Positions 17,500-55,632 of a stretch of 64,000 nucleotides of DNA are shown here, one piece after another. A model generated the notes under the pieces. That model searched no databases, was not told where the DNA came from, and was given only the letters and a program-made list of their open reading frames with translations. Numbering within the stretch: position 1 is the first letter of the stretch; every line of letters begins with the position of its first letter. Location: the NCBI GenBank assembly GCA_963744145.1, contig CAVUSO010000001.1, positions 5,120,001 through 5,184,000 of the forward strand, read 5' to 3'. This stretch comes from an uncultured cyanobacterium. Its GTDB lineage: Bacteria; Cyanobacteriota; Cyanobacteriia; Cyanobacteriales; CAWUOF01. The translations under genes and the position numbers were made by a program.

Positions 17500-19079
17500 A
17501 GTAGTCGGACAAAAGTAATAGGTACTGTATTAACTTTTGTAAAACGTATGGGTCAAGCAATAAGCTGGACAAAGTCATCGAAAAATTAGTCCAATCTGGA
17601 GAAGATTGGCCAAAGAAGTGGCTGGACAATGGGAGCAAAAAATTAGACTTATTTTGGTAATTAAGGGGATAAGTGAGGTCGATTTTAGCTTCAAAAAAAA
17701 CACCCTGATTGTGAAATAATTATAGAGCTAACTTAAAAGTTTGAAGAAAATGTCATCTCCTCCTTTGAGAATATTTTTAACATCTGCGGAAAATCAAACC
17801 TTATGGGAATTAAATAGAGCCGAGGGAGTTCCACTAAGAACAAGAGATCGGGCTGCGACCTTGAGATTATCATCAATGGGATGGAAAGTGGAACAGATCG
17901 GCAAGTATCTGAACTGGTCAATTAAGACAGTGAGAGCCACAATACATCGTTGGGAAAAACAGGGATTAGCAGGATTATGGGATGCGCCTCGTCCGGGCAG
18001 GAAAAGAAAATGGAGTCAGGCAGATTTGGCAGAAATTGAAAAAAAACTAGAGACAGAGGAACGAGCTTATAATAGTCGTCAGTTAGTGAAATATCTAGCC
18101 CAGGAAAGGCAAGTAAAACTGAGCCAAAGACAGTTGCGTCGAATCCTCAAAAAAAACTATCGGTGGAAAAGAACGAGAACATCTCTAAAAGGAAAGCAAG
18201 ACCAGGAAAAAAGAGCAACTAAAAGAAATGATTTAGAGATGTTGGAATTCGCGGCAGCCGCGGGTGAAATATGTTTAAAATATTTGGATGAATCAGGATT
18301 TAGCCTGTGGGCTGAACCTGTATATACCTGGGGGAAAATCGGCCAACAGAAACAGATCAAACAGCCTAAAAAGAAAGGGAAAAGATTAAATATATGTGGA
18401 TTTTTGGCCGTGGGAGAAAGCTTTGAATATGGATTAAGTTTTAAGAGTTTTGACAGTAAGAATTATATCAAATTAATGGATTGGCAAGCCGCGCAAGCGG
18501 AAACTAGATTGAAAGAAACGGGCAAAATAACTGTAATTGTCCAAGACCAATATTCCGTTCACGTAAGTAAATTGACGAAGAGCAACTATGATCAATGGGA
18601 AAAACAAGGATTATATATATTCCTATTATCCAGTTACTCTCCCGAATTAAATCTGATTGAAACGGAGTGGGAAAGAATCAAAGAAGATGAATTAGCTGGT
18701 CAAATGTTTGAGAATGAATATGAATTAACCATCGCGGTAAGAGCAGCAATCGAAGCTCGTCAAACTAGTAAGGGCTTAGAAGTAAAAAGATTTAGATTTG
18801 GTGGTCAGCCTAGCCAGGATGAACAAAAATCCTAATCGGGTTTATTCTAGTTCTAGTCAACCGGAAAAATTCCATTAATTGTTTAATGAGAGGCTGAGGC
18901 AAAACTGACCATATTTATAGTTAATAGAAAATCTGGAAATGCAGTTTTCTTACTCTCTAGTGAAACCTATTCAGTTGGACGGAGGGAATACTTTTATATG
19001 CTTTTCTCTGGTAAACTTGTGGGTCAAATTTACTCTTAAATAAAGTTAACATAGTTAACTTTATTTATGTCCGACTACT
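17500..19079 (+). mobile_element. IS630-family insertion sequence (1580 bp)
   Basis: Terminal inverted repeats AGTAGTCGGACA (17500) and TGTCCGACTACT (19068-19079); TA target duplication at 17498-99 and 19080-81. Confidence 0.93.
17750..18835 (+). CDS. IS630-family transposase
   Basis: HTH (DAPRPGRKRK) and DDE motifs YLDESG, VQDQYSVH, YSPELNLIE. Confidence 0.93.
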   Translation: MSSPPLRIFLTSAENQTLWELNRAEGVPLRTRDRAATLRLSSMGWKVEQIGKYLNWSIKTVRATIHRWEKQGLAGLWDAPRPGRKRKWSQADLAEIEKKLETEERAYNSRQLVKYLAQERQVKLSQRQLRRILKKNYRWKRTRTSLKGKQDQEKRATKRNDLEMLEFAAAAGEICLKYLDESGFSLWAEPVYTWGKIGQQKQIKQPKKKGKRLNICGFLAVGESFEYGLSFKSFDSKNYIKLMDWQAAQAETRLKETGKITVIVQDQYSVHVSKLTKSNYDQWEKQGLYIFLLSSYSPELNLIETEWERIKEDELAGQMFENEYELTIAVRAAIEARQTSKGLEVKRFRFGGQPSQDEQKS

Positions 19080-19333
19080 TACGAAGTGCTTGTTGGATTT
19101 GTTCCTGTTGTGCAGGGGACAGTTTTTCTAAAGTTGTCTGGTAAGTAGTCAATCTGTCCCTTAGTCCTGTACGTCTGTGCAGTCTTTTACGGTACTTTTC
19201 TGGAATTATTTCCGGCCATGTTGGCGTTTTTTTTGCTATCTTTAGACTGTTATGGATTGAATGCAAAATCTCGCACAAACATTCGTGGAGCCAGTTTTCT
19301 TCTGTTGCCGAAATGGGATACCCAAAAAGCATC

Positions 19334-20974
19334 CTATACCCTATCTCCCCTATTCGTTAGTTGTCGTAGTCGATCAGCAAGAAATGCTTTCTCGACAGAA
19401 TCACCAAGACGCTTTATCCCTGCCTTGATCTCTTCGGGATTATTACTCTGCATCAATTTGTTAATCTCATCAAGAGGGACTTGTGACATAGGTGGACGAA
19501 CGTTAAAGCATTCCTCAATAATCGTATCGAATGTAGCGCCAAATGTTTGAATATCAGGATTTTTGACTTGAATTTTTCCGGCTTCGTTTTTGCTAAAAAT
19601 AAAAACTTTGTCTCTCTGCATATCTGAGGGGACAAAAGGCGAGTGTGTTGTCAGCAAGCACTCTTGTTCAGGAGCTTTTGAAGATGCTCGGCGATCGCCA
19701 TTTTCTGTAGGCAGATCGAGTATTCGGGAAATAAACTTCACTGACCATTGGGGATTGAAATGGGACTCAGGCTCATCCAGTAAAAAAAGCACATTAGTAG
19801 ATGACAACATACAGAACGTTCCCAGAATCTGCACAAGCTGATGTTCGCCATCAGAAAGCCATTCATAGCCTACCTCTTTACCAGTCCCTTTAGCTTTAAA
19901 TATAACCCGTTTAAATCCGAAGACCTTATCCTCATCTTGAGGTTCTGGAAGACGTGAATCAAATTTTCTTTCTCTAGTCTCTTTCCAAAAGCGCTTGCGT
20001 GTTTCCCTTGGAAGGGCTAAGTCATTTAACATTGCGAGCTTGTGGAATGACGAATATAAATCGAGGGTGTTGTTCCAAAAGGCTCGAAACGCTTCCCTGG
20101 TCTGGTCATTGATCCAATAGTCAAAGGTGTAAGTTTCTGTCTTGTCGTCATAGGTGTAGCAAGTGGCACAGCGTTTGAGATGGTCGAGATATTTTTCCAG
20201 TTCTTTAGTGAGTTGTATTCCTTTTCGGCTGCTTTGTGAACCTCCCCTGCTGAGAAGTTTGGGAACGGCACTATGTGCCAGTTGGACTATACAACGAAAT
20301 GAATGCAGGTCTTGTAGTTGTGCGTCTCGTAGCAAAGCCTCCCACTGGACAACATCACCCAACAAAAGGTTTGCCAAGAGAACCTCAAGACGCGTTCCAT
20401 AATCAATCAGCATTAATCTAGTATCAAAAATAAGTTGATCGCGCATCGCTGCCTTCAATGCTCTTGTGCCCACGTCGTCTGCATATCCACTACGGCTAAC
20501 TAGGAATGGTAGACTGAGCGTTTCGTTATCGCCTGATGTATAGCCAATCACCATTTCAGGCAATAATGTACGAGTCTTAGGATCATTTATGTCGCAGTCT
20601 ATCCAGTCGTATTCCTCTTCATCTCTCCGCTCGATCACAAGAGTTGGACGCTTTCTACCACTAGCTTTTTGTAAAATGCGGATGCGGACAGGTAGCTGCT
20701 CATCCTCTGGGTAAATGAGGTACTCAAGCTCGAATTCCAGGTCAGGATTTCCTTCAAGACGTTCTTCTTTAGGAATACATTTGTGAAACACACATTGAAA
20801 AATCTCTACTAGTACCTGTAAAAACTGAGATTTACCTGCACCATTCAGCCCAATTAGACATAAAGGATCGAACGCGGAATAGTCACTCAATGGACTTCGT
20901 AGCCGTAAGTCAAGTCCATCAAATAATCCACGACGGGTTTTATCTGAAATGATGTGAACTCTTAAAAGTTTCAT
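19334..20974 (-). CDS. Restriction-system-associated ABC/AAA ATPase (PtuA-like)
   Basis: GLNGAGKS Walker A, GYTSGDNETLS, LSDGEHQ signature, LLDEPESH Walker B, TTHSP H-loop; lies between the hsdS remnant and the HNH gene. Confidence 0.88.
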   Translation of the reverse strand: MKLLRVHIISDKTRRGLFDGLDLRLRSPLSDYSAFDPLCLIGLNGAGKSQFLQVLVEIFQCVFHKCIPKEERLEGNPDLEFELEYLIYPEDEQLPVRIRILQKASGRKRPTLVIERRDEEEYDWIDCDINDPKTRTLLPEMVIGYTSGDNETLSLPFLVSRSGYADDVGTRALKAAMRDQLIFDTRLMLIDYGTRLEVLLANLLLGDVVQWEALLRDAQLQDLHSFRCIVQLAHSAVPKLLSRGGSQSSRKGIQLTKELEKYLDHLKRCATCYTYDDKTETYTFDYWINDQTREAFRAFWNNTLDLYSSFHKLAMLNDLALPRETRKRFWKETRERKFDSRLPEPQDEDKVFGFKRVIFKAKGTGKEVGYEWLSDGEHQLVQILGTFCMLSSTNVLFLLDEPESHFNPQWSVKFISRILDLPTENGDRRASSKAPEQECLLTTHSPFVPSDMQRDKVFIFSKNEAGKIQVKNPDIQTFGATFDTIIEECFNVRPPMSQVPLDEINKLMQSNNPEEIKAGIKRLGDSVEKAFLADRLRQLTNRGDRV

Positions 20975-21300
20975 TTCTTAGTCCGAACGAAACACATCGT
21001 CCGCTCCTCTCGATCAAATATCTGCGTAAGACTTGGCTCGGCTTCACTCAGAAGTGCAAACAGAATGTTCTTCAGTGAATCGTAATCATCAGGAAGGTTT
21101 TTGCGGAGTTCATCAAATGAAAACCTGTCCTTGGGTAATTGGTGAATTGCTTCCTTAACAGATTCTTCGGTCATCTTGGTCATAGTTGTTTTTTTAGGAG
21201 TTAGGGATCTATTTGGTTGCGCTGGTTGTGCTGATCGTTCAACGCGAATCCGTTCTAACAGCACCGATGCTGGTTCATCGTTGGGGTCTTGGGATACCAA
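20971..21300 (-). pseudogene. hsdS: C-terminal remnant of type I restriction specificity subunit
   Basis: ELVSQDPNDEPASVLLERIR is the conserved HsdS C-terminal motif; the target-recognition domains are missing. Confidence 0.8.
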
Positions 21301-22004: not shown

Positions 22005-24692
22005 TTGCAGATCCAGGGTAATCAAGCATTCCTGCTTTCCGATCCCGCAAAACTTTGGTTAGTTCAGTCGGGTAGCATTGCTTTGTTTGCGGTTAGAGTT
22101 AAGGATGGAGTAGTGATCTCAGCCCGTCGTTATTTATTTAGTAGCGAACCGGGAGAGTTAGTTTGTGGGATGGGTATTGGTGGAGAACAGAGCGATCGCG
22201 CTATTTTAGCTGTAGGAATTCCTGGAGATAGTGCTACTAATGGAACTACGGAAATTGTTGAGATTGAGCGGGAACAATGGCAAGATTTACAATCAGCAAA
22301 TCATGCTTATACAGTTACTTTAATTGCCACTTGGTGTCGAAAAATTCAGGGAGTATTTGCTGGAATTAGCGATTTAGAATTATCTAATATATCTGATGCA
22401 ATTATTCCAGATTGGGAATTGTTAATGGGAGAATTGTCTCAACTTCATCGGATTTTTTGGCAAGGGATTGATTTAATTGTAGCACAAGAAAAAGCAGTAG
22501 GATTGGTCAATTTACAAGCCAGAGAAAAATTTAATCAACAGCAATTAACCCAAGCTTTATCAGAATTAGAATCCTTACTACCTGATCAACAAAAATTTGT
22601 CGAAACTGAAACTGATGCTCAGGGTAGTAATCAAAATGAATATTTACCTTTATATCTGGCTGCTGTTGCTGTTGGTAAAGCTTTGGGAATTAAGATTTAT
22701 CTTCCAATTAACTTGAATCAAGATCCTTTAAATGCGATCGCTACAGCTTCTAGAATCAGGATTCGTCGCGTCTTATTAACAGATAATTGGTGGTCAAAAG
22801 ATTGTGGACCTTTATTAGCTTATACCCGTGATGGAAATCACCCGATCGCACTGTTACCTAGGACAGCAGGACGTTACCAAGCTTTTGATCCTGTGCAACA
22901 TATTCATCGACGAGTAGATGAAGAAATTGCCCTAACTTTGCTACCAATAGCTTATATGTTTTATTTGCCATTACCAGAGCGAAAATTAACAGCTTTTGAT
23001 TTAATTTTATTTGCATTGAAAAACCGTCGTAAAGATTTGTTGATGCTATTATGGTCTGGGATAGGAATTACCTTGCTGGGGATGTTTTTACCTCAAGCTA
23101 CCGCAATTTTGATTGATTTAGTAATTCCTGATGGTAAACGGAGATTGTTGATTGAAATTGGGTTAGGATTATTAGCTGGAGCGGTGGGGAGTTTGATTTT
23201 TCAATTAACTAGAGGACTCGCAATGATGCGATTAGAAATATTAGGAGATGCTGCTACTCAATCCGCAGCATGGGATCGGTTATTAAATCTTCCTGTACCT
23301 TTTTTCCGTCAATATTCAACGGGTGATTTACAATTGCGAGTATCAGCAATTAGTGCGATTCGTCATGAATTAGGTGGGGTGGCTTTGCAAACTTTATTTA
23401 TCGCTATTGTCACCTTACCAAATTTAGGATTATTATTTTATTATAACTGGGAATTAGGTCTAATTGCCGCAGCGATCGCACTAATAATTTTGGGAGTAAC
23501 TGGATTTTTAGGAATCGGGAATTTACGGATTACCAAACAATTGCAGAATTTGGAAGGAAAAATTTTAGGCTTAATGGTACAATTAATTAATGGAGTGGCA
23601 AAATTGCGGGTAGCAGGAGCAGAAGAACGGGCTTTTGCTAGGTGGAGTAAAGAATATAGTAAACAGCAAAGATTAAAGCTAAAAATCCAGCAATTAATCG
23701 ATATTTCCGTGGTTTTTAATCAGATATTAATCCCCATAGCGCAGGTATTTTTATTTGCCACAGCAGCAATATTAATCCGGGGAGGGGGTGGGTTATCACC
23801 GGGAATATTTTTAGCATTTAATACGGCTTTTGGGATCTTAATTGCTGGGATAACAGGGTTGGGAGATGTGAGTGTAAATTTTTTAGCAGCGATCGCCTTA
23901 TGGGAAAGAATTAAACCAATTATGCAAACAGAACCAGAGGTTGATCTAAATAAAACTGATCCTGGTCAGTTGTCGGGGAGATTGACCTTAAACCGCGTGA
24001 CATTTCGATATCGAAAACAGGGAGTAGCAGTATTAAATAATGTTAGTCTCAAGGTGGAACCAGGGGAATTTGTGGCATTAGTCGGTCCTTCTGGTAGTGG
24101 TAAATCGAGTCTATTTCGATTACTTTTAGGTTTTGAAACACCCCAATCAGGGGAAATTTATTATGATGGTCAGGATTTGCGAGGATTAAACATCCAAGCG
24201 GTACGGAGACAATTGGGTGTGGTGATTCAAAATAGTCGATTGAATACAGCTTCAATCTTTGATAATATCGCTGGAGGTGCATTAATTACCATGGATGACG
24301 CATGGGAAGCTGCTCATCAAGTTGGTTTAGCAGAAGAAATCGCAGCGATGCCCATGGAAATGCACACAGTGGTAAATGAGGGAGGAAATAATTTGTCAGG
24401 AGGACAGCGACAGAGATTATTAATTGCCAGAGCATTAGTATTAAAACCGAAAATTTTGTTATTAGATGAATCAACCAGTGCTTTGGATAATAAAACTCAA
24501 GCGATCGTCACCGAGAGTTTAGATAAATTAAAAGTCACCCGTGTGGTAATAGCTCATCGTCTGAGTACAATTCGCCAAGCCGATCGGATCTATGTGTTAC
24601 AATCTGGACAAATAGTAGAAGAAGGTAAATTTACAGATTTAATTGCTCAAAATGGTTTATTTGCACGTTTAATGAAACGGCAAATTGCTTAA
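22005..24692 (+). CDS. NHLM/NHLP bacteriocin-system ABC transporter, permease/ATP-binding subunit without peptidase
   Basis: IATASRIRIRRVLL, WWSKDCGPLL, AAWDRLLNLP, GPSGSGKS, LSGGQRQ; TTG start uncertain. Confidence 0.9.
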   Translation: MQIQGNQAFLLSDPAKLWLVQSGSIALFAVRVKDGVVISARRYLFSSEPGELVCGMGIGGEQSDRAILAVGIPGDSATNGTTEIVEIEREQWQDLQSANHAYTVTLIATWCRKIQGVFAGISDLELSNISDAIIPDWELLMGELSQLHRIFWQGIDLIVAQEKAVGLVNLQAREKFNQQQLTQALSELESLLPDQQKFVETETDAQGSNQNEYLPLYLAAVAVGKALGIKIYLPINLNQDPLNAIATASRIRIRRVLLTDNWWSKDCGPLLAYTRDGNHPIALLPRTAGRYQAFDPVQHIHRRVDEEIALTLLPIAYMFYLPLPERKLTAFDLILFALKNRRKDLLMLLWSGIGITLLGMFLPQATAILIDLVIPDGKRRLLIEIGLGLLAGAVGSLIFQLTRGLAMMRLEILGDAATQSAAWDRLLNLPVPFFRQYSTGDLQLRVSAISAIRHELGGVALQTLFIAIVTLPNLGLLFYYNWELGLIAAAIALIILGVTGFLGIGNLRITKQLQNLEGKILGLMVQLINGVAKLRVAGAEERAFARWSKEYSKQQRLKLKIQQLIDISVVFNQILIPIAQVFLFATAAILIRGGGGLSPGIFLAFNTAFGILIAGITGLGDVSVNFLAAIALWERIKPIMQTEPEVDLNKTDPGQLSGRLTLNRVTFRYRKQGVAVLNNVSLKVEPGEFVALVGPSGSGKSSLFRLLLGFETPQSGEIYYDGQDLRGLNIQAVRRQLGVVIQNSRLNTASIFDNIAGGALITMDDAWEAAHQVGLAEEIAAMPMEMHTVVNEGGNNLSGGQRQRLLIARALVLKPKILLLDESTSALDNKTQAIVTESLDKLKVTRVVIAHRLSTIRQADRIYVLQSGQIVEEGKFTDLIAQNGLFARLMKRQIA

Positions 24693-24696
24693 AACA

Positions 24697-27258
24697 CTAT
24701 TTAACTAAACATCCAGACGGGAACCAAGGTTGATAAGTTATAGTAACAGGAAGAGCCGTTAAAATCACTTGTCCTTTTTCGTTAACCATCCAGTTTTTAG
24801 CTTCAACAATTCGATCAGGTCTCGTTATTTGCGAAGGCATAAATTTTTTATTTTGGGGGATAGCGTGAGAAATTTGTTCTTCTGTTAATGGATTTGTGGG
24901 TGGGCTGAGAACTTCCCAATTAGACAATGTTGATTCAGCCGTAATCACATCGTGAGGATTGGTAGGTAAACCACCACTACCAGTAAATGTAAATTGATTT
25001 TTATATCCATCTACATGAGAACAACTTTTATAAATTTGATTGTTGATATTGAGAACTTTCTGGGAGATATTTAAAATTCCTTTACTAGGGTCCAGATCAG
25101 GAGTTTTAATCTGCACCACCCCATTGAATTTCAAACCTGCTGCCGAACTAGCCGTGATTTGTTCACTCGGTGTAGGCGCAAAAACAGATTTAGCATTAAT
25201 TAAAATATTACCACCATAACCTTGGAAAGCATTAGCAGTAATTGTACTATTTTCCAAAAGGGTAATACTGCCAGTAGGTAAATCAAGAGTTATATTACCA
25301 CCAACCCCAGTGCCACCAGCTTCAGCAGATAATTTACTGTGGTGACGTAAAAGTAATTGTTGTGCCGCTAAATCAATATTACCACCACCAGCACTAGCAG
25401 CACTAGCTGTAACTGTGGCACCCTGATCAATAATTAATTTGTTAGTGCTAATTCGTAAATCACCAGCCATACCACTCCCTTGACTTTCAACGAACAATCT
25501 ACTGGGAACGGAAAGACCATTGTTATCAATACCTGTACCAGTTACTTCGATCGAATTCGAGGCTTTTATAGTTAAATCTCCACCCATCCCACTAGTACCA
25601 GTAATTGTCCCCGCTGAAACTTTAGCCCCACCCTGGATACTTAAGCTCCCAGTAGTAATTGTCACACTGCCACTATTACCAGTAGCACCTTGGTCAACTT
25701 GAGAAAATAAACCAGAAGGATATAGACCATCGGCTGATCTACCAACTACTTCAATAGAACCAGTAGCATTAACAGCTAAGTTTCCACCTTGACCAATTCC
25801 AAAAGTGCCAACTTCGACCTGAGAACCATTTTGCAGCAGTAAATTTCCTGTATTGATAGCCACGTTTCCTCCATTTCCTTGGCTACCAGGATTACTTACA
25901 GCAGATATATAGCTCCCCCCCATTAGTTGAATATCTGAGGCATTTATGGTCAATTTAGCAGCATTACCGTTAGCAAAAGTAGAAGTAGTAATCTCAGGCT
26001 GTCCTTGCATGATTAACTGTTTGGTATTGACAGTAAGATTACCAGCATCTCCATTATCCGTCGTGGTCGCAAATAAACCAGTTGAGCCATCGCCCATTAT
26101 TTGCACCGAATCACTAGCATTAACAATCAGGTCACCAGCAGTTCCCGAACTGTAAGTGCTAGTTGATGCAACTCCAGAGTTTTGAATCACCAATTTGCTG
26201 GTATTAATGGTTAAATTGCCACCATGTCCGCTCCCTTCTTTCCCGATCCTGGGGTTAATACCAGCAGATGATCCAACTACCTCAGTTAACAAAGCGCTGG
26301 GAAAAGTTCCATCGGCAGATTGTCCGATTATTTCTACTAAATCGGTGGTGTTGACTGTTAAATTGCCTCCCGGTTTAGTTCCTAATGTAAGAGATATAAT
26401 TTCAGAACCATCAGTGAGACTCAATCGTTGTCCTTGGACATTGATATTACCCCCACCATCTCCACTCGTATCGACGATCGCTCCCTGAGATAGTTGGATG
26501 TCACCGAAATTTTTTATCCCGGCATAATTGAAAAGATAGCCATTTCCATTTACCCCCAGAGTAACAGTACCTGCGACCGCTACACTGCCCAGTTCAATTT
26601 GTCCAGATTCTGCGGTCAGATTACCACCTGTTAAAGTTAAGTTACCACCGAGCAGAGCTAAGGTTTTTCCTAGAGGGACTTGGAGTCCTACTACTTGGTT
26701 ATTGCTATTGGTAGTTTGGGATTGATTGATGATTGAGCCAGGATTAGCCCCAAATTGTAGCCCAATCGGCATATTTATGCTTAATAGTGGGGCTTGAGGC
26801 TTGATCGCACTAAACTCAGTCCCATTGGCAAATTTTAAACTGTTGGCAGTTGTGGCAAAAAATGATCCACCTATATTTAAGCTAGCATGAGGACCAAAAA
26901 TGATGCCATTAGGATTAATCAAAAATAAGTTAGCTGGGACATTCGCTTTGAGTAAACCATCAAGGTTGGAAGGAGAGCTACCTGTAACCCTAGTAATTAT
27001 ATTCTGAACGTCAGTAGAATTATTGAAAAAAACTGTATTACCAGTAGGAACGGAAAATTGACTAAAGCTGTGGAATAGGTTTCCTCCAACTGTAGTACCA
27101 CCAGTAATATGACTGATATTTCCTTGGGGGGTAACGATAGAATTGACTGGAAGGCTGGTATCGGGAATAATTGTTTGGGGAAATGAGGGGGTGCCTATCG
27201 CTAACCAGACCCATGTTAGGCTATTGGCAATCCACACAAATTTAATGCCTGGTTTCAT
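24697..27258 (-). CDS. Filamentous haemagglutinin N-terminal-domain (TpsA-like) exoprotein
   Basis: NLFHSFSQFSV, ANLFLINPNGIIFG, Gly/Asn-rich beta-helix repeats, FTFTGSGGLP and IVEAKNW C-terminal motifs; ATG at 27258 preferred. Confidence 0.92.
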   Translation of the reverse strand: MKPGIKFVWIANSLTWVWLAIGTPSFPQTIIPDTSLPVNSIVTPQGNISHITGGTTVGGNLFHSFSQFSVPTGNTVFFNNSTDVQNIITRVTGSSPSNLDGLLKANVPANLFLINPNGIIFGPHASLNIGGSFFATTANSLKFANGTEFSAIKPQAPLLSINMPIGLQFGANPGSIINQSQTTNSNNQVVGLQVPLGKTLALLGGNLTLTGGNLTAESGQIELGSVAVAGTVTLGVNGNGYLFNYAGIKNFGDIQLSQGAIVDTSGDGGGNINVQGQRLSLTDGSEIISLTLGTKPGGNLTVNTTDLVEIIGQSADGTFPSALLTEVVGSSAGINPRIGKEGSGHGGNLTINTSKLVIQNSGVASTSTYSSGTAGDLIVNASDSVQIMGDGSTGLFATTTDNGDAGNLTVNTKQLIMQGQPEITTSTFANGNAAKLTINASDIQLMGGSYISAVSNPGSQGNGGNVAINTGNLLLQNGSQVEVGTFGIGQGGNLAVNATGSIEVVGRSADGLYPSGLFSQVDQGATGNSGSVTITTGSLSIQGGAKVSAGTITGTSGMGGDLTIKASNSIEVTGTGIDNNGLSVPSRLFVESQGSGMAGDLRISTNKLIIDQGATVTASAASAGGGNIDLAAQQLLLRHHSKLSAEAGGTGVGGNITLDLPTGSITLLENSTITANAFQGYGGNILINAKSVFAPTPSEQITASSAAGLKFNGVVQIKTPDLDPSKGILNISQKVLNINNQIYKSCSHVDGYKNQFTFTGSGGLPTNPHDVITAESTLSNWEVLSPPTNPLTEEQISHAIPQNKKFMPSQITRPDRIVEAKNWMVNEKGQVILTALPVTITYQPWFPSGCLVK

Positions 27259-27419
27259 TGGCAATTCAACCTCTGACAAGTTTAAAAATTTTTCTATTGC
27301 GTAAAAATACTGATAGATCAAAGAGCCTACTAATTTTTATAGTAGCCCTTGGATCAATAAACTAATTAGGTTTTTTAAAAAAATAAATTAAAGACTTGAT
27401 GAAGATTGCTCTAAGTGTA

Positions 27420-27449
27420 TTGACAAGGGTAAAATGACTTAGGTATGGT
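27420..27449 (+). promoter_or_regulatory. Putative sigma70-type promoter of the precursor/lanM operon
   Basis: TTGACA-18 bp-TATGGT; TGACAAGGGT repeated at 27421 and 27452. Confidence 0.4.
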
Positions 27450-27577
27450 AATGACAAGGGTTAGTTGTAAGAACAACTTCTAGCCGACAACCACTTATCC
27501 GCAATTTTTCTTAAGGGTAAAGGTTAGAATGTTGTCAGTGATTATTATTTGATTAAATCTAATGGGAGACTAAAACA

Positions 27578-27715: not shown

Positions 27716-27815
27716 TGGCGATCGCAATTCGCCAAAAATAGTTTAGAACAGCTCTTAAATCAGAATAATTATAAACTGAGAGAGAAGCAGATAAAGATTG
27801 TTTTTGACCTTTTTC

Positions 27816-27857
27816 AGGGGGGACAAGCAAAAAGTTTGCTGTCCCCTCTCGGTTTTT
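27816..27857 (+). terminator. Intercistronic hairpin between precursor and lanM-like gene
   Basis: AGGGGGGACAAGCAAA-AAG-TTTGCTGTCCCCT stem followed shortly by a T tract. Confidence 0.65.
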
Positions 27858-27944
27858 CATTTTCAGCAGTTGAGAGGGTAACAGCGAAGGTGAAAATGAG
27901 GTAATATCTTCTTTTGGCTAGCAATTGCAGTTTTGGGTGGTGCC

Positions 27945-30900
27945 ATGAGTGATCGTCCCATACACTCTCAAGCAGAATTAATCAAAATCCTTGAACGTGC
28001 CAGCACCCTCAAGGAACGTTTGGGTGGAGAATTTATTAGCGATCGCGAACAAATTAAAGAAGATCAAATTAATTGCTATTTGGAAGAGTGGTGCCAAGTT
28101 GTTGGGGCAGGAGATTTAGAAAGATTTGAAAAACGCTTATCCTGGGATGGGTTAAATTTAGAGAGGGTATTACCCATTCTGACGGCTGTCCGTTTAAAAG
28201 ATGACCAAAATCTGCCCCACTGGTTAGAAACTTTAACCAATGGTCTGAAAGCTGCAACTTTGTTCGATCTCAATCAGCCATCTGACTATCCTCAACTTCC
28301 ATTTGTCGAGGTCTTTTTACCCTTAATTAATTTAGCTCGAACTAAAGTAATTGCTAAAACTGGTTCAAGTTATGAATTAATGACAAAAACTGCTCATCAA
28401 AACCTAGAATTCAGTCTCCTCGAATTTTTAGTACATTTAGGCTCGCGATCGCTGCAATTAGAATTTGCGGTTTTTTGTGGGGGTATTCAAACTAATAACA
28501 GTCTCTCGGATTTAGCGAGTGAAAGTAATAAAGCACAATATCTAAAATTTGTCAAGGGGTTATTAGAGGGAGGATTACTACTTTTTTTCCAAGAATATAG
28601 TGTCTTAGGGAGGTTGATTGCTACCACTGTAGATTTATGGGTAGATACCACCGCAGAATTTATGGTCAGATTAGCAACAGATTGGACAGAAATTCAGCAA
28701 ACTTTTCAACCGAAAAAGGAACTAGGAAAAGTCATCGCGATCGCACCTAATCTATCTGAGCGACATCACCAAGGACGGACAGCACTCGAACTGACCTTTG
28801 CTGCGGGTTTAAAACTAATTTATAAACCGAAAAACTTAGGGTTAGACATCGCTTATATTAACTTACTCAACTGGTTTAATCAAGAAAAGTTACCATTAAA
28901 GTTCAAATTAATCAAAATTCTCAACCGGGATGATTATGGTTGGGTAGAATTTATCGAAAATCTTCCCTGTCTTAATCAAGAAGCAGCACAACGCTATTAT
29001 CAACGGGCAGGAATGTTATTAAGTTTAATGTATCTTTTAGATGCAAGGGAATGTAACTGCGAAAATATTATCGCTAACGGAGAATATCCAGTTTTACGCG
29101 AACCAGAAACCTTAATGCACCCTCGATTTCAAGAAGATGAGTTACCAAATGAAGATCGAGGAGTTCAGGTTCTTGCTAATTATCAGCTTGGTAATTCTGT
29201 GATCCGAACTGGTTTCTTACCCCGTTGGAAAATAAATTCTAGAGAACAATATTATGACGATAGTGGATTATGGGGAATGGGTGAGGGAAGAACAGCAAAA
29301 GCGAATTTACCTAAATTAGGCAATACCTATTTATCACCAACTGATTACCTGGAAGAAATCGTAAATGGTTTTCAGGTAATGTATCTATTTTTAATCAAAA
29401 AGAGAGACAAATTAATTACCTCCAATAGTCCATTAGCAGAAATAGCACAACAATCAGTACGCTTTCTTTTTCGGACTACTAAAGTCTATAATTTTATCTT
29501 AAATAAAATCCTCCAACCCAAATTTATCCGGACTGGGATTGATTGGAGTATTCAGCTTGATATTTTGGACAAAGCTCTCCTTGATTCGCAAACAGTCCAT
29601 CCCTGTTGGAGTCTCGCTAAAGCAGAAAAGAAATCTCTGGAATTAATGGATATTCCTATATTTACAGTCAAGGGAAATAGTCGTGATTTAATCATTGCTC
29701 CTGGTGAAAAGATTGAGAATTTTTTTAATCAATCGAGCGAGCAGAATGTGATTGATAAATTCCACCAATTACATGAGCGAGATTTAAACAAGCAAATCGA
29801 AATTATTCGTAATTCTATTTATATCCTAATTGCTCATCAAACTCAACCAAAAATAAATAATAGTTCCCATCACCATTCTGGGAAAAAGTCAGGAATTTTA
29901 ACAGCAAAACAACTAATCGCAGAAGCAGTAATAATTGGTGAAGATTTAAAAAAACGGGCGATTATTTCTACCCAAAAGGGTATGATTTGGATGGGATTAA
30001 ATCAGCTAGCTAAAGCTGAATATTTCCAATTAAATCCCCTTGGATATGACCTTGACAATGGGATTGCAGGAATAGCATTATTTTTCGCAGCTTTAGCAAA
30101 AGTTAGTGATCAAAAATGGGGAGAATTTGCTTTAGCAACATTGCAACCTTTACGTCAAAATTTACAGAGTCATAACCTAGATGGAAATATCTTCCAGAAC
30201 ATGGGTATTGGTGGTGCGAAAGGATTGGGTGCGATTATTTATGTATTGGTAAGAGTGAGTGAATTTCTCTCAGCACCAGACATGATCAAAGATGCTAAAA
30301 AAGTAGCTGCTCTGATTACCAAAGATAAAATTACTAGCGATCGCTATTTAGATATTTTTTCTGGGTCAGCTGGAGCAATTTTAGGATTATTAGCTTTATA
30401 TGAGATTGAGCGAGATCAAAAAGTTTTAGAAACTGCCATAGCTTGTGCCCATAATATATTATTCCATCTATTTAAAAGCAATTCTAGTTTCAGTAGAGGG
30501 AAATTTTTAAATTCCAAATTGCCCATCAGTTTTTATCAGGGTTATACCGGAATCGCTTATGCTTTACTACGATTATATAAAATTACTAATCATGTCAATT
30601 TTTTAGAAGCAGCAAGTGAAATTATCATAGACTGCAATAATTCCAGGCAAAATTTACACCATATTTGTGATTATTATCTTGGTGATTTAGCCCAGATATT
30701 AACTGATAATAAGAAGGAAATCAAGCAAAAATTTAAAACCGGATTAAAACCCAATGGAGAATTAAAATTACAGGGTGTGGATAATCTCTATGAGGGGAAT
30801 TTTGGGATGATCGAGATTGCGTTACTTACGAGTCAAAAGCTGAATCTTCATGAGGGTTTAGAAATTGCTAACAAACAAGCAAGTTGGGTAATAAATAGAG

Positions 30901-31049
30901 CAAAACATACAGGTGGGTTTAAATTGTTTACTAACCTTCCCACCGATGCGTATACCCCCAGTTTTTTTTCAGGAAGTGCGGGAATTGGTTATGAACTTTT
31001 GCGATTAGCTGCTCCAGAATTATTTCCTTCCGTGATCCTCTGGGAATAA
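27945..31049 (+). CDS. lanM: Class II lanthipeptide synthetase (LanM) homologue with degenerate active sites
   Basis: LanM architecture (LIYKPK, YGWVEFI, YYQRAG, RFLFRTT, LanC-like barrel, GSAGIGYELLRL...PSVILWE); catalytic motifs altered (ECNCEN, LREPET, FYQG, LYEG). Confidence 0.88.
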   Translation: MSDRPIHSQAELIKILERASTLKERLGGEFISDREQIKEDQINCYLEEWCQVVGAGDLERFEKRLSWDGLNLERVLPILTAVRLKDDQNLPHWLETLTNGLKAATLFDLNQPSDYPQLPFVEVFLPLINLARTKVIAKTGSSYELMTKTAHQNLEFSLLEFLVHLGSRSLQLEFAVFCGGIQTNNSLSDLASESNKAQYLKFVKGLLEGGLLLFFQEYSVLGRLIATTVDLWVDTTAEFMVRLATDWTEIQQTFQPKKELGKVIAIAPNLSERHHQGRTALELTFAAGLKLIYKPKNLGLDIAYINLLNWFNQEKLPLKFKLIKILNRDDYGWVEFIENLPCLNQEAAQRYYQRAGMLLSLMYLLDARECNCENIIANGEYPVLREPETLMHPRFQEDELPNEDRGVQVLANYQLGNSVIRTGFLPRWKINSREQYYDDSGLWGMGEGRTAKANLPKLGNTYLSPTDYLEEIVNGFQVMYLFLIKKRDKLITSNSPLAEIAQQSVRFLFRTTKVYNFILNKILQPKFIRTGIDWSIQLDILDKALLDSQTVHPCWSLAKAEKKSLELMDIPIFTVKGNSRDLIIAPGEKIENFFNQSSEQNVIDKFHQLHERDLNKQIEIIRNSIYILIAHQTQPKINNSSHHHSGKKSGILTAKQLIAEAVIIGEDLKKRAIISTQKGMIWMGLNQLAKAEYFQLNPLGYDLDNGIAGIALFFAALAKVSDQKWGEFALATLQPLRQNLQSHNLDGNIFQNMGIGGAKGLGAIIYVLVRVSEFLSAPDMIKDAKKVAALITKDKITSDRYLDIFSGSAGAILGLLALYEIERDQKVLETAIACAHNILFHLFKSNSSFSRGKFLNSKLPISFYQGYTGIAYALLRLYKITNHVNFLEAASEIIIDCNNSRQNLHHICDYYLGDLAQILTDNKKEIKQKFKTGLKPNGELKLQGVDNLYEGNFGMIEIALLTSQKLNLHEGLEIANKQASWVINRAKHTGGFKLFTNLPTDAYTPSFFSGSAGIGYELLRLAAPELFPSVILWE

Positions 31050-31093: not shown

Positions 31094-32122
31094 ATGAAAA
31101 TTATGACAGTACCTCTGTTCCAATTCCAGGGAATGAATAATACTGACATTAATTGGTTAGTCAGTATTGGTAAAAGAGAAAAATTTGCCCCAAACACCAT
31201 CTTGATTCAGGAAGGACAAATAGTAAATAGTATTTATTTTATCCTAGTCGGTGGATTAAGTATTTCTCTAGCAGGATTAAATGGAGAAAATCAGGAAATC
31301 GCTAGATTAGGAAATGGTGAAATTGTCGGAGAAATGTCTTGGATGGATCATCACCAGTCCCCCATCACAGCATTAGTGGTCGATTCCGCAGAAATTCTGG
31401 AGATTACCCATGAAAAATTACAGATAAAAATCAAACAGGACCACGGATTTGCAGCTCGGTTTTATCAAGCAATGTCAATCGTTTTTTCTGATCGACTCCG
31501 AGGGATTTCTGATTTGTTAGCACATAGTAAGATTGTCCCTGGACAACCGTTGCGAAAAGTGCTGTTAGTTTTTAATGAATTAATCGATCGCGATATTGAT
31601 TGGATAATTGAATTTGGTCACAAAGAGAGATTTTCTCCTGGTCAAGTTTTAATTGAACAAGGTAAATCTTTAGATGCTATATATATTTTGTTGAAAGGAA
31701 ATATCGGCATCTATATTAATATTATAAATGATCATGAAAAAATTAGTAAAGAAGTTGCTCGCTCTGCTAGTGGTGAAATTTTAGGAGAAATGTCCTTTAT
31801 TACTGGTGCGAATGCTTCAGCAACAGTAAAAATAATTGAAACTTCGGAAGTTTTAGTGTTACCGTGCAAGTTTTTATCAGCAAAATTGCAAAAAGATTTA
31901 GGATTTTCTTCCCGATTTTATCGAGCGATCGCGATAGTTCTATTAGATCGACTTAAAGATCGACTCAAACAAAGTGGTTATGCTCGAATTGCTTACGATC
32001 AAGCTAAACATCTAAATGAAGAGCAGGAATATCAGGATGAAATTGACCTTGATGCTTTAGATTATGTTTCTTTAGCTGGGTTAAAATTTGATTGGTTACT
32101 CAAACGCTTACAAGCAAATTAA
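31094..32122 (+). CDS. Tandem cyclic-nucleotide-binding-domain protein
   Basis: Two repeats of DIxW...LIxxG...GEIxGEMS...ARFYxA; no HTH. Confidence 0.88.
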   Translation: MKIMTVPLFQFQGMNNTDINWLVSIGKREKFAPNTILIQEGQIVNSIYFILVGGLSISLAGLNGENQEIARLGNGEIVGEMSWMDHHQSPITALVVDSAEILEITHEKLQIKIKQDHGFAARFYQAMSIVFSDRLRGISDLLAHSKIVPGQPLRKVLLVFNELIDRDIDWIIEFGHKERFSPGQVLIEQGKSLDAIYILLKGNIGIYINIINDHEKISKEVARSASGEILGEMSFITGANASATVKIIETSEVLVLPCKFLSAKLQKDLGFSSRFYRAIAIVLLDRLKDRLKQSGYARIAYDQAKHLNEEQEYQDEIDLDALDYVSLAGLKFDWLLKRLQAN

Positions 32123-32133
32123 AGTAGACATAT

Positions 32134-33573
32134 ATGCTTGAAAAAAAGCGTAAAATATTCCGGAAAGAGTCTTTAGAACGATTATCATCTCCGGAAAGAT
32201 TAGATCGACTAATGCAAGTCATTAGTCCGAAGGGTTGGTTAAATTTAGGAGCTTTTACTTGTCTGATTTTATTAGGATTAGGTTGGAGTGTACTCGGAAA
32301 AATCCCGATTACTGTGACTGGTAAAGGAGTCATTGTCAATCCTCGTCAGATGATAGAATTACAATCACCAATTACGGGACAGTTACAGAAATTAAATATC
32401 AAAGTAGGAGATTGTTTTAAGAAAGGAGATATTTTGGCTGAATTAGCACAACCGGAATTACAAAAACAACTGCAACAACAACAAAATAATCTGGCTGAAT
32501 TACAAAAACAAGATCGACAATTAAGTGCGATCGCAACAGCTAGAATTGAGATAGAAAAGCAAAATTTAGCCCAGCAAAGACAAAATAAACTGCAACGTCA
32601 AAGAGATCAGGGGGAATTAGCGATCGCAGTACGTGAGCAAGAAGTAAAAGCAATCCAAAAAGAGCGAGAAAATCTCAAACAACAGCTAGCAAATAATCAG
32701 GGATTAACACCGATATTAGCACAAAGATTAAAAATTCGCCAAGATTTAAAAATTGAAGGTGCGGTTTCAACTGATAATCTGTTAGAAGCAGAACAAGCTT
32801 ATCGGAATAATCTGAATGAAATTGCTAATTTACAAGCTCAAATTCAGGAACTAGAAGTTAGAGAAATTAAAGCTAATCAAACCTATAAAGACACCCAAAG
32901 TCAAATTAGTGATTTAGACTTCCAATTACAACAGCTCAATAGTCAAGAAAAAAACCTGATTCAACAAAATTTAGAAGCGATCGCAACTCGGAGTAATAAA
33001 ATCCAAGAAGTAAAACGAGCGAGCGCTCAACTCGAACTGCAATTGCAACATAATAGTAAAATTATTTCACCCCAAACTGGCTGTATGCTAGAAATGACGA
33101 TGAACAATGGACAATTTATTACACCTGGGACTAAACTAGGTACGATCGCAACGCAAGATTTAACTAATAAAATTGTCAGTTTAACTTATTTTCCCATTAA
33201 AGATGGTAAACAAATTAAACCGGAGATGACGATCCAAATTACTCCTGACACTGTACCCCGAGAGCGATTTGGAGGAATTATCGGTAATATTGTTTCCATT
33301 ACCCCATTTCCGATTACCAAAGAAGAAATATCGAGAATTGTGGGTAATCCGGAAATTGCTCAATCCCTCGTCTTTGAAGGAGGACAAATTCAAGTTATGG
33401 CCGAAATGAAAAGGAATTATAGTAATATTAGTGGTTATCAGTGGTCTTCTTCCCATGGTCCAGATTTGCAAATTACCACTGGAACTACTACTACAGCTCG
33501 AGTAACTGTAGGAGAACGGGCACCTATCACCTTTATTTTACCATTTTTGAGAGCTAATACTGGAATTTATTAA
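32134..33573 (+). CDS. NHLM bacteriocin-system secretion protein (HlyD-family membrane fusion protein)
   Basis: IFRKESLERLSSPERLDRLM, single TM, long coiled coil, RERFGGI, GYQWSSS. Confidence 0.93.
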   Translation: MLEKKRKIFRKESLERLSSPERLDRLMQVISPKGWLNLGAFTCLILLGLGWSVLGKIPITVTGKGVIVNPRQMIELQSPITGQLQKLNIKVGDCFKKGDILAELAQPELQKQLQQQQNNLAELQKQDRQLSAIATARIEIEKQNLAQQRQNKLQRQRDQGELAIAVREQEVKAIQKERENLKQQLANNQGLTPILAQRLKIRQDLKIEGAVSTDNLLEAEQAYRNNLNEIANLQAQIQELEVREIKANQTYKDTQSQISDLDFQLQQLNSQEKNLIQQNLEAIATRSNKIQEVKRASAQLELQLQHNSKIISPQTGCMLEMTMNNGQFITPGTKLGTIATQDLTNKIVSLTYFPIKDGKQIKPEMTIQITPDTVPRERFGGIIGNIVSITPFPITKEEISRIVGNPEIAQSLVFEGGQIQVMAEMKRNYSNISGYQWSSSHGPDLQITTGTTTTARVTVGERAPITFILPFLRANTGIY

Positions 33574-35871
33574 TATTTAGATTTTGCCAGGATGATGGAA
33601 AAGCTCCTCAACTATCTTAGGTCTTTTTATCTCCTATTGCTCAGGTTCAAAACCAAAATTCAAACATCTTTATTCCCCAACTTCTACCAGTATCGAAAAC
33701 GGGAAAGAACTCCGACAGTATTACAAATGGAAGCAGTAGAATGTGGTGCTGCTGCTTTAGGAATTATCCTAGGTTACTACGGAAGAATTGTCCCATTAGC
33801 AGAATTACGCAAAGAATGTGGAGTCTCAAGAGATGGTGCTAAAGCTTCTAATATTCTCAAAGCTGCTAAAAATTATGGACTCACCGGTAAAGGATTTAAA
33901 AAAGAGCTAGAAGCAATCAAAGAAATTCGCTGTCCTTATATTGTATTTTGGAATTTTAATCATTTTTTAGTAGTAGAAGGATTTAGTAAAAAACGAGTTT
34001 ATCTAAACGATCCAGCGACGGGACCTCGTCCTGTTACTTGGGAAGAATTTGACGAATCTTACACCGGAGTCATCCTGGTGATGGAACCAGGAGTAGACTT
34101 TGTTAAAGGTGGACGTAAACCTAATATTATCTTCGCATTATGGGAAAGATTACGGGATTCATTAGGAGCGATCGCTTACTGTTTGTTAGCAGGATTACTA
34201 TTAGTTATTCCTGGATTAGCTATCCCAGCTTTTACCCAGATATTTGTTGATCAAATTTTAATTCAAAACCGACAAGAATGGTTAAATCCCTTGCTTTTGG
34301 GTCTGAGTGCGACAGCTTTAATTCGGGGATTATTAGCTACATTGCGGTTTAAATATCTCCGCTATTTAAAAATTAAACTAGCTGTCACCATGTCGAGTGA
34401 ATTTATTTGGCATATTTTGCGTTTACCGATTAGTTTTTATGCTCAAAGATTTGCAGGGGAAATTGCCAATCGAGTCCGGATTAATGATCAAGTTGCTGAT
34501 ATCCTATCAGGTCAATTAGCGACAACTATTATTGATATGATTATGATGATTTTTTATGGAATTGTCATGAGTGAATATGATTTAATTTTGACCATGATCG
34601 GGATTTTTTTCGCTAGTATTAATTTAGTCGCTTTAATGCAACTATCCCGTTGGAGAGTAGATGCTAATTTACGGTTAGGACAGGAAGAAAGCAAAGCATC
34701 AGGATTTGCGATCGCGGGATTGCAAAGTATTGAAACTATAAAAGCATCTGCACTAGAATCAGACTTTTTTTCCCGGTGGTCTGGTTATTATGCTAAAACT
34801 ATCAACGCTCAACAAGAACTAGACCTGCAAAACCAAGCATTGGGAACTTTACCAATCTTTCTAAATGCAATTACCTCGATTTTAATCTTAGTAATTGGTG
34901 GGTTACGAGTCATAGAAGGTAATTTGAGTATTGGGATGTTAATTGCTTTTCAAAGTTTGATGGAAAGTTTTCTAGAACCAATTAACCGTTTCGTTAACTT
35001 GGGGAGTAAAATCCAAGAACTAGAAGGTGATTTAAGTCGTCTAGATGATGTTCTCAACAACCCCATTGATCCGCAAATGAAATTAATTGAGAACCAAACC
35101 CAATTATCCGGAGCTGCTAGATCGACCACAACATTGATGGACGATTATCGGTTACAAGGTTATGTGGAACTGCGAAATATTTGCTTTGGGTACAGTCCAG
35201 TTGATGCACCTTTAATAGAAAATTTTAATCTCCAAATCTACCCCGGACAACGAGTAGCATTAGTAGGAGCAAGTGGTTCAGGAAAATCGACAGTTGCTAA
35301 ATTAATTAGCGGATTATACAATCCTTGGGAAGGAGAAATTCTGTTTGATGGAATACTCCGGGAAGAAATTCCCCGAGCAGTCTTAATTAATTCGATCGCT
35401 ATGGTAGATCAAGAGATTTTATTATTTGCTGGTACGATTCGCGAAAATTTAACTTTGTGGGATAATTCGATTCCCGATCGATATTTAATCCAAGCTTGTC
35501 AAGATGCAGCGATCGCTGATGTAGTAATATCTTTAGAAGGTGGTTATAATGCTTACCTACTGGAAAGTGCAGGAAATTTAAGTGGTGGTCAACAACAGCG
35601 ATTAGAAATTGCTCGTGCTTTGGTAAATAATCCCAGGATTCTGATTATGGATGAAGCAACCAGCGCTCTTGATCCGGAAACTGAAAAAATTATTGACCAA
35701 AACCTGCGACGACGCGGTTGTACTTGTATTATTGTCGCTCATCGACTTACCACAATTCGTGATTGTGATTTAATTATGGTATTTGAAAAAGGCAAAGTAG
35801 TTCAACAGGGAACCCACGAAGAATTATGGCAAGAACAAGGTATATATGCAGAATTAATTAGCAGCGAATGA
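33428..35871 (+). repeat. 2444-bp direct repeat, copy 1 (hlyD 3' end + peptidase-ABC gene)
   Basis: Colinear with 44787-47230 at a constant offset of 11359. Confidence 0.95.
33592..35871 (+). CDS. NHLM bacteriocin-system ABC transporter with C39 peptidase, copy 1
   Basis: QMEAVECGAA catalytic Cys, NHFLVV His, LNDPA, GASGSGKS, LSGGQQQ, DEATSALD. Confidence 0.95.
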   Translation: MMEKLLNYLRSFYLLLLRFKTKIQTSLFPNFYQYRKRERTPTVLQMEAVECGAAALGIILGYYGRIVPLAELRKECGVSRDGAKASNILKAAKNYGLTGKGFKKELEAIKEIRCPYIVFWNFNHFLVVEGFSKKRVYLNDPATGPRPVTWEEFDESYTGVILVMEPGVDFVKGGRKPNIIFALWERLRDSLGAIAYCLLAGLLLVIPGLAIPAFTQIFVDQILIQNRQEWLNPLLLGLSATALIRGLLATLRFKYLRYLKIKLAVTMSSEFIWHILRLPISFYAQRFAGEIANRVRINDQVADILSGQLATTIIDMIMMIFYGIVMSEYDLILTMIGIFFASINLVALMQLSRWRVDANLRLGQEESKASGFAIAGLQSIETIKASALESDFFSRWSGYYAKTINAQQELDLQNQALGTLPIFLNAITSILILVIGGLRVIEGNLSIGMLIAFQSLMESFLEPINRFVNLGSKIQELEGDLSRLDDVLNNPIDPQMKLIENQTQLSGAARSTTTLMDDYRLQGYVELRNICFGYSPVDAPLIENFNLQIYPGQRVALVGASGSGKSTVAKLISGLYNPWEGEILFDGILREEIPRAVLINSIAMVDQEILLFAGTIRENLTLWDNSIPDRYLIQACQDAAIADVVISLEGGYNAYLLESAGNLSGGQQQRLEIARALVNNPRILIMDEATSALDPETEKIIDQNLRRRGCTCIIVAHRLTTIRDCDLIMVFEKGKVVQQGTHEELWQEQGIYAELISSE

Positions 35872-44657: not shown

Positions 44658-44786
44658 TGATAGAACCAGAGCGAATTTTGTATTTAGCAGTTACGATAGA
44701 TATTTACGATGAATTTTTTAGTCGCAAATTTATTCAAAGAGTAATTGCCGAACATCAACTAAAATTACTGATCTTTAATTCTGAAC
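44658..44786 (+). pseudogene. xisH: XisH-family C-terminal fragment fused to the duplicated hlyD tail
   Basis: IEPERILYLAVTIDIYDEFFSRKFIQRVIAEHQLKLLIFNSE. Confidence 0.75.
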
Positions 44787-55589: not shown

Positions 55590-55632
55590 TTGTCATTTTC
55601 TTTCTTAGTGATAAAAACAGTGCTTGCTGCAG

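Follow-up and report, generated by a model that had tools for sequence, protein, structure and literature searches.

The lanM-like gene and its family

The window analysed here, a 64,000-nucleotide stretch of contig CAVUSO010000001.1 (positions 5,120,001 to 5,184,000) from an uncultured cyanobacterium of the order Cyanobacteriales, carries a peptide-export cluster of the NHLP type in which a lanM-like gene stands between the gene for a short double-glycine precursor and genes of the exporter (Table 1). By sequence the product is a LanM, or class II lanthipeptide synthetase, with a dehydratase and a LanC-like cyclase domain; however, three catalytic Asp residues of its dehydratase domain all read Glu, its cyclase has lost the zinc ligands, and the protein may persist as a non-catalytic member of the export operon.

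The frame opens on ATG, ends on TAA and encodes 1034 residues, so that the uninterrupted 3.1-kb frame described in a first-pass annotation, which was made from the sequence alone, is confirmed. Its product scores 706 bits against the TIGR03897 LanM profile (NCBIfam cut-off 304) and contains both PF13575 (DUF4135) and PF05147 (LANC_like), which places it in the LanM sequence family. It is the sole LanM found by tblastn in the 7.7-Mb genome, and the third-position G+C content (GC3) of the gene is typical of that genome. Identity to cyanobacterial LanMs among the matches listed is 44–50%, with the nearest relatives at 50%. The homologue set used throughout comprises 263 sequences: 119 others from the best 120 of 708 matches and 144 further ones from the best 150 of 7732, with labels such as P0167 denoting individual homologues in this data set. 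A FastTree phylogeny, in which 258 of 264 sequences were retained after a gap filter, nests the protein among canonical cyanobacterial LanMs on a terminal branch of 0.78 (median 0.46), and its sister clade of 11 sequences is without its changes. Descent from other degenerate LanMs was considered and rejected, as P0252, P0167, P0181 and the cyclase-dead set discussed below all lie far off in the tree.

Dehydratase active site

Residue correspondence was set by HMMER alignments to CylM (5DZT) and LicM2 (6ST5). In these, CylM Asp252 corresponds to Glu272, where GDSH reads SERH; Asp347 and His349 correspond to Glu369 and Asn371, where DLHYEN reads ECNCEN; and Asp364 corresponds to Glu386, where IDNET reads REPET. 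The first-pass annotation had reported these readings, together with retention of the YKP Lys and of the RxxxRxT elimination motif, and all of them hold: each named motif lines up with its counterpart in both reference proteins, and Lys294 and R506-x3-R510-x-T512 are retained. The Asp-to-Glu exchange is nevertheless less surgical than was claimed, since it comes with Asn in place of His349, Arg in place of Ile363, Pro behind the Mg ligand, a 25-residue deletion and divergence over residues 551–750 and 801–950; the Arg before the Mg-binding Glu, this deletion and the Cys-free precursor just upstream had been overlooked.

Seven of 11 dehydratase catalytic positions are retained and four are changed. 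Those kept correspond to CylM His254, Lys274, Asn352, Glu366, Arg506 and Thr512, and in the protein's own numbering the retained residues are H274, K294, N374, E388, R506, R510 and T512. The three Glu codons are GAG, GAA and GAA, and the neighbouring changed codons are CGC, CCA and AAC. Glu is absent from all 263 homologues at the positions of residues 369 and 386 and occurs in 6 at that of residue 272, two of which lack the His as well (Fisher p = 0.04, the sequences not being independent); Asn at the position of residue 371 occurs in 2.

The divergence goes beyond these positions. The residue preceding the Mg-binding position is Arg385, where 260 of the 263 homologues have Ile or Val and none has Arg. 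Counting by offset, R385 would correspond to PI3K Ile963, which we take to line the ATP cleft. The residue after the Mg ligand Glu386 is Pro387, found in one other homologue, and a charged pair conserved jointly in 179 of 263 is replaced (E121V and R156F). The 25-residue deletion removes the NINTD segment with its conserved Asp, leaving 27 residues where the median is 52; this region is shortened in a few other LanMs too, some of them with intact zinc ligands. The positions of CylM Val272, Ile354 and Val361 in the adenine pocket are still hydrophobic, Val361 having been equated in the CylM study with Phe961 of the PI3K-gamma adenine pocket (PMC4550811).

The same study attributes phosphorylation in CylM to Asp347, His349, Asn352, Asp364 and Lys274, and elimination to Asp252, His254, Arg506 and Thr512 (PMC4550811). 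In the phosphorylation set the Lys and Asn are kept but D347E, H349N and D364E are found; in the elimination set the His, Arg and Thr are kept and D252E is the change shared with the six homologues. CylM D347A and D364A left the substrate unmodified even after 10 h, and H349A was merely slow (PMC4550811). On this footing the first-pass view of the protein as a pseudoenzyme is likely, as judged from sequence, rather than demonstrated.

Other departures from the dehydratase consensus occur in the family. In a clade formed by P0053, P0070, P0074, P0078, P0096 and P0097, DxHxEN reads DCTxDN (His to Thr, Glu to Asp) and the zinc ligands are intact; three of these proteins likewise have a short NINTD region. 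The full-length P0167 (Moorena producens JHB, WP_071104250.1) has a degenerate dehydratase, with D272N, D369S, H371D and E388D in the present numbering, and keeps its cyclase motifs; dehydratase-only LanMs show the reverse state.

Rarity and pattern of the Asp-to-Glu changes

Near-invariant columns over residues 201–640 were compared with the 119 closest homologues. At a conservation threshold of at least 99%, 38 of 40 columns are kept, the exceptions being D369E and D386E; at 97% or above, 55 of 58 are kept and the three exceptions are the three catalytic Asp residues; at 95% or above, 69 of 76 are kept and seven differ. The 97% threshold was picked after the 99% and 95% results were known. 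For the 58-column set, and with that post hoc choice in mind, the probability that neutral decay strikes just the three catalytic Asp and converts all of them to Glu is at most about 4e-8. Simulated neutral divergence left 10 of 300 frames free of stops at 2% and 0 of 300 at 5%. Neutral decay fails to explain this pattern. A genetic-code or genome-wide Asp-to-Glu effect was rejected: the protein keeps 48 Asp residues and 10 of 11 other aligned conserved Asp columns. The alignment has 14 Asp columns with conservation of at least 90%: the Asp is unchanged in 10 of them, three hold the catalytic Glu, and one, which lies in the decayed cyclase, has Asn; a further conserved Asp was removed by a deletion. 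Of the earlier claim that selection maintains a non-canonical function, purifying selection and non-random change at the catalytic Asp (3 of 58 columns) stand up, and the non-canonical function is inference from one genome.

The combination appears confined to this genome among the relatives compared. Protein searches (best 120 of 708 and best 150 of 7732 matches) yielded no second Glu-type LanM. Strict Glu-motif scans of DNA gave 0 matches in genome_contigs and 0 in metagenome_contigs, where Asp-permitting protein equivalents of the patterns match 88/119 and 81/119 homologues; loose scans in which both Glu were mandatory returned 11 and 12 matches, none of the 23 a LanM, with a pattern that matches 103/119 homologues. 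Across 401 genomes of the order, a pattern with the first Asp fixed as Glu matched this genome and 0 of the 400 others, against 60 for the Asp control. No natural LanM with Glu at the catalytic Asp sites turned up in the literature searched, nor were data found there on the effect of Asp-to-Glu exchange at the CylM catalytic positions; the available portions of PMC4558948 and 10.1101/2023.03.20.532734 hold nothing relevant to such natural LanMs.

Cyclase domain and wider divergence

The first-pass readings of SFYQG for GFSHG, LYEG for LCCG and a missing WCxG are borne out: none of the zinc ligands (WCxG, CCG/CHG) and no active-site His (GxxHG) is present, and identity over residues 831–970 is 35%, compared with 66% among relatives. 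These residues make it almost certain that the cyclase cannot form thioethers by a zinc-dependent route. Because class III cyclases function without zinc ligands (noted in PMC10301443), the missing Cys in the precursor is the stronger argument against thioethers, and the loss of the ligands fits a Cys-free precursor. Conservation in the windows 551–750 and 801–950 falls below the 5th percentile of relatives, and three deletions were counted in the protein.

The earlier claim of zinc-ligand loss is real, yet this is not the unusual part of the protein: the Cys-Cys ligand pair is also lost in 10 of 215 full-length homologues, all of which keep the dehydratase catalytic set, the three Asp included. 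As here, P0121, P0190, P0193, P0212, P0240 and P0262 have lost WCxG and the Cys-Cys ligands, and in several the cyclase His has become Gln; unlike the present protein, they retain the dehydratase set with its three Asp, and they are not its sisters. With the zinc site gone and four of 11 dehydratase positions altered, the protein does not qualify as a dehydratase-only LanM. P0145, P0190, P0193, P0212, P0240 and P0262 share a recurring cyclase-dead signature: Trp replaces the second Cys of LCCG, the GFSHG His is lost and the dehydratase is intact.

Precursor and export cluster

The 45-residue precursor shows weak similarity to NF038167, under the cut-off, and the search of 60 relatives returned no homologue of it. 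Its predicted core has two Ser and no Cys, so that a cognate precursor with both Ser/Thr and Cys in its core is not what lies beside this LanM. The export side of the locus is of the NHLP type: TIGR03794, TIGR03796 and TIGR03797 all score above cut-off, their motifs are intact and a double-glycine precursor is present. The operon contains no partner kinase or tailoring gene.

Table 1. Features of the export cluster and of the lanM-like gene (window positions; residue numbers are those of the LanM-like protein)
Feature	Position	Strand	Remarks
NHLP export ATP-binding cassette (ABC) transporter without peptidase (TIGR03797)	22005-24692	+	ATPase motifs intact
Filamentous-haemagglutinin-type (TPS domain) gene	24697-27321	-	Between the TIGR03797 ABC gene and the precursor; one of many genomic paralogues
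14-nt direct repeat	27417-27461		31 nt apart, overlapping the promoter consensus; possible regulator site
Sigma-70-like promoter consensus, TTGACA-18-TATGGT	27420-27449	+	Upstream of precursor; consensus match only
Double-glycine precursor, 45 aa	27578-27715	+	Leader end ELDTIAGG; predicted 9-residue core RAAQSAKSL (2 Ser, 0 Cys)
Structured spacer between precursor and lanM-like gene	27716-27944	+	Three hairpins; z = -2.8, 1/200 shuffles as good
lanM-like gene	27945-31049	+	DUF4135 dehydratase and LanC-like cyclase; 1034 aa
E272 (GAG) = CylM Asp252	28758-28760	+	P-loop, phosphate elimination; Glu in 6/263 homologues
K294 of YKP = CylM Lys274	28824-28826	+	Retained (alignment)
E369-C-N371 = CylM Asp347-Leu-His349	29049-29057	+	Catalytic DxH; Glu 0/263, Asn 2/263
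R385-E386-P387-E388 = CylM Ile363-Asp364-Asn365-Glu366	29097-29108	+	Arg 0/263, Glu 0/263, Pro 1/263; Glu388 retained
25-residue deletion region	29250-29330	+	27 aa, median 52; NINTD segment and its conserved Asp gone (comparison with homologues)
R506-x3-R510-x-T512 elimination motif	29460-29480	+	Retained (alignment)
Degenerate cyclase zinc site	30528-30794	+	GFSHG to SFYQG; about 23 residues missing at WCHG stretch; LCCG to LYEG
Double cyclic-nucleotide (cNMP)-binding bacteriocin-transport-associated protein (TIGR03896)	31094-32122	+	Profile match
HlyD-type NHLP secretion protein (TIGR03794)	32134-33573	+	Profile match
C39-peptidase ABC transporter (TIGR03796)	33592-35871	+	Cys/His and ATPase motifs intact

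The cluster resembles cyanobacterial NHLP/N11P clusters in its TIGR03794/03796/03797 trio, TIGR03896 gene, double-glycine leader and LanM neighbour (PMC2887384; PMC3140520, groups IV and V), and the cyanobacterial loci L124–L126 have similar gene sets. It differs from them in a short leader of neither NHLP nor Nif11 type, a nine-residue Cys-free core and a non-canonical LanM. LanMs adjoining NHLP-type exporters are already established in these reports (PMC2887384, PMC3140520). The idea that the TIGR03896 gene is an obligate LanM neighbour was discarded, as 29 loci of other genomes have no LanM within about 1.5 kb of it.

Elsewhere in the window, the 3′ end of hlyD and the whole C39-ABC gene (33428-35869) are duplicated at 44787-47228, 11 kb downstream, with 98.5% identity and 22 synonymous and 9 non-synonymous codon differences; at 44678 a short, unrelated 5′ piece is fused in front of this copy. 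The stretch 17741-21300, immediately upstream of the export cluster, holds an IS630 transposase together with what is left of a restriction-associated AAA ATPase locus. At 55624-57414 on the minus strand lies a gene for a kinase-WD40 protein with HRNIKPSN and DFY, an apparent pseudokinase without the catalytic Asp.

Other peptide exporters in the genome

A second NHLP exporter, about 1 Mb away at C1 6188112-6196987, has no LanM and is accompanied by three Cys-free double-glycine peptides, whose cores are 8, 8 and 12 residues long; an orphan fourth paralogue of these peptides lies at C1 4972559. Because an exporter without a LanM carries three Cys-free peptides, unmodified cargo appears to be the local norm. 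Beside a third NHLP-type transporter, and near the gene for a 311-residue membrane protein, C1 ~7135400 on the minus strand encodes a 55-residue peptide whose core is Cys-rich and which has a cleavage-like VVGA site; this Cys-rich peptide of double-glycine type lies about 2 Mb from the lanM-like gene, to which no link was made. Two small proteins of nitrile-hydratase-like type (TIGR03793, below cut-off), which have no clear double-glycine core, are encoded at C1 4954422-4957240 and 4554703-4555026. One of them is encoded directly upstream of a 792-aa gene, whose product presumably resembles a cyclodehydratase.

What the protein may do

The reading that we favour, and to which we would give close to an even chance, is that this LanM is dead or nearly dead in both activities and persists, folded and with its frame open, as a member of the export operon without catalytic function. 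We favour loss of phosphoryl transfer because the changes take in two indispensable Asp, the catalytic His and one residue of the pocket, within a conserved fold, in a genome where short, unmodified cargo is the norm. The starting point would have been an ordinary cyanobacterial class II synthetase, which first lost its cyclase zinc site, unneeded for Cys-free cargo, and later phosphoryl transfer. The carboxylates would have become longer instead of disappearing because basic residues still line the pocket: the three Glu may neutralise K294, H274, R506, R510 and the new R385, and their side chains may occupy the place of ATP-Mg or of the phosphopeptide, so that the domain is held folded and able to bind peptide. 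As an escort, scaffold or regulator, LanM would then bind the precursor leader or the ABC transporter, and RAAQSAKSL would be released by the C39 transporter without modification, in the manner of the short Cys-free cargoes of the LanM-less NHLP exporter. For LanM dehydratase domains there is support for binding of the leader (PMC12537861), which may extend to this protein; the LanC-like domain of NukM is reported to contact its transporter (cited in PMC7378552).

Several observations weigh against a non-catalytic partner. The seven unchanged catalytic positions include the whole elimination motif, which suggests that the site still does something. The dehydratase-degenerate P0167 changed to Asn and Ser, not to Glu, and even if catalysis were dispensable, three of three Asp changing to Glu has a probability of about 0.006 (neutral spectrum) to 0.045 (family spectrum), so that an acidic side chain seems to have been selected; the geometry of a self-filled pocket is something that we only infer. 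An escort is not obligatory, since the second NHLP exporter of this genome has no LanM gene. The segment matching the proposed leader-binding sheet of CylM falls within a stretch (651–700) whose divergence exceeds that of 95% of relatives. For nisin, secretion was not restored by inactive NisC, although an earlier study cited in the same report described recovery (PMC7378552).

The acidic side chains could instead belong to a working, cyclase-less dehydratase, whose co-adapted Glu residues would displace the Mg/phosphate site; both Ser of RAAQSAKSL would then be converted to dehydroalanine or be left phosphorylated. We regard this as unlikely. It would account for the retention of K294, N374, E388, H274, R506, R510 and T512, for acidic charge at all three changed sites and for the hydrophobic adenine-pocket positions; D272E, with its association with His loss, shows that one of the changes recurs in the family, and cyclase-dead LanMs with an intact dehydratase recur as well. 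The core offers two Ser and no Cys, and Cys-free precursors beside LanM have been expected to stay dehydrated (PMC2887384). Yet all 10 cyclase-dead relatives keep all three Asp, Glu at the Asp347 and Asp364 positions is seen in none of the 263 homologues and the Glu pattern in none of the 400 other genomes of the order, and His349, Ile363 and the NINTD segment have been lost too.

It is improbable, in our estimate, that the kinase fold has instead taken on altered chemistry, acting as a phospho-Ser lyase on a peptide phosphorylated in trans or in nucleotide transfer such as adenylylation, so that a rewired LanM fold (the Asp-to-Glu triad plus the pocket Arg) would perform a new reaction on the nine-residue Cys-free peptide. 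The changes do cluster on the phosphorylation residues D347, H349 and D364, with elimination residues H254, R506 and T512 intact. If the loop pair of the IucA/IucC enzymes is structurally equivalent to that of LanM, as we assume, one of two adenylating IucA/IucC proteins reads E-x-H-x-Q-N ... R-D, with Glu and Arg at the equivalents of E369 and R385, but the second has Ser and Lys in their place. Elimination by CylM runs separately on a phosphopeptide with ADP present (PMC4550811), and LanM elimination mutants are described as leader-dependent kinases, so that the half-reactions can be uncoupled (PMC3475617). This chemistry is weakened because the IucA/IucC enzymes retain the His and Asp that the present protein has lost (residue roles as given for DesD, PMC9356276) and because LctM Asp259, at the Asp364 position, is described as needed for elimination as well as phosphorylation (PMC10301443 supplement); nor does the operon supply a partner enzyme, and the Atlas features indicate DUF4135/LanM clusters only.

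A decaying relic, selected for most of its history and functionless today, carries a low probability. The long terminal branch, the three deletions, the below-family conservation at 551–750 and 801–950, the restriction of the variant to one genome among the relatives compared, and the recent rearrangement nearby that left the partial hlyD-ABC duplicate would all suit it. Against it stand the small neutral probability for three Asp becoming Glu with the other 55 columns intact, its threshold post hoc, and the stop- and frameshift-free 3.1 kb, which argues against long decay rather than against very recent loss. Sequencing or assembly error at the three codons is very remote: the gene comes from a single assembly, but three separate errors at exactly the catalytic codons would be needed along with coordinated CGC, CCA and AAC changes, and contigs of one soil-metagenome run show no differing letters in the gene at a depth of about 3 in the bins with the three codons, weak support because depth is low and the run may be the window's own source material.

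Comparison with known LanM proteins and significance

The protein shares two-domain architecture and length with CylM (5DZT), LicM2 (6ST5) and the cyanobacterial ProcM-type LanM (TIGR03897, CCG zinc motif), and differs from them in the three Glu, the His-to-Asn change, the Arg before the Mg ligand, the lost zinc ligands and cyclase His, and the deletions of about 25 and about 23 residues. By homology, its two domains would adopt the lipid-kinase-like and the LanC toroid folds. The closest precedent is CA_C0082 of Clostridium, which is likewise LanM-derived, is without zinc ligands or dehydratase catalytic residues and has nonetheless been retained (PMC10301443). As an Agr effector lacking catalytic residues in both domains, CA_C0082 has a real phenotype in Clostridium acetobutylicum (PMC10301443). 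Members of its group, as reported there, are 670–728 residues long with a partly missing dehydratase, form a clade in 11 species and lie beside agr quorum-sensing genes (PMC10301443), whereas the present protein has 1034 residues, occurs in one genome, keeps acidic side chains and lies between a double-glycine precursor and an NHLP exporter. Neither the length nor the agr setting is shared; non-conserved catalytic residues in both domains are, in a comparison made by domain and not residue by residue. The protein is a LanM by sequence, and falls outside the catalytic definitions of a class II synthetase and of a dehydratase-only LanM as well as outside the CA_C0082 subfamily.

LanM pseudoenzymes are therefore already published in the form of CA_C0082, and what is new here is a full-length variant with an Asp-to-Glu triad in one genome; this precedent and the single genome limit the weight of the finding. 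The active-site Asp residues of LanM have been treated as untouchable, and a natural, full-length and selected triple Glu variant is a ready-made experiment on the role of these carboxylates, one that bears on the scope for retuning the kinase fold or turning it to another use. Were altered chemistry to prove true, it would be a new modification of RiPPs (peptides made by the ribosome and modified after translation) that evolved from a class II lanthipeptide synthetase. If the protein is dead, the locus would be a caution for genome mining, which would label it a lanthipeptide cluster, and the protein would offer a clean means, supplied by nature, of probing the non-catalytic roles proposed for lanthipeptide synthetases in leader binding and hand-over to the exporter.

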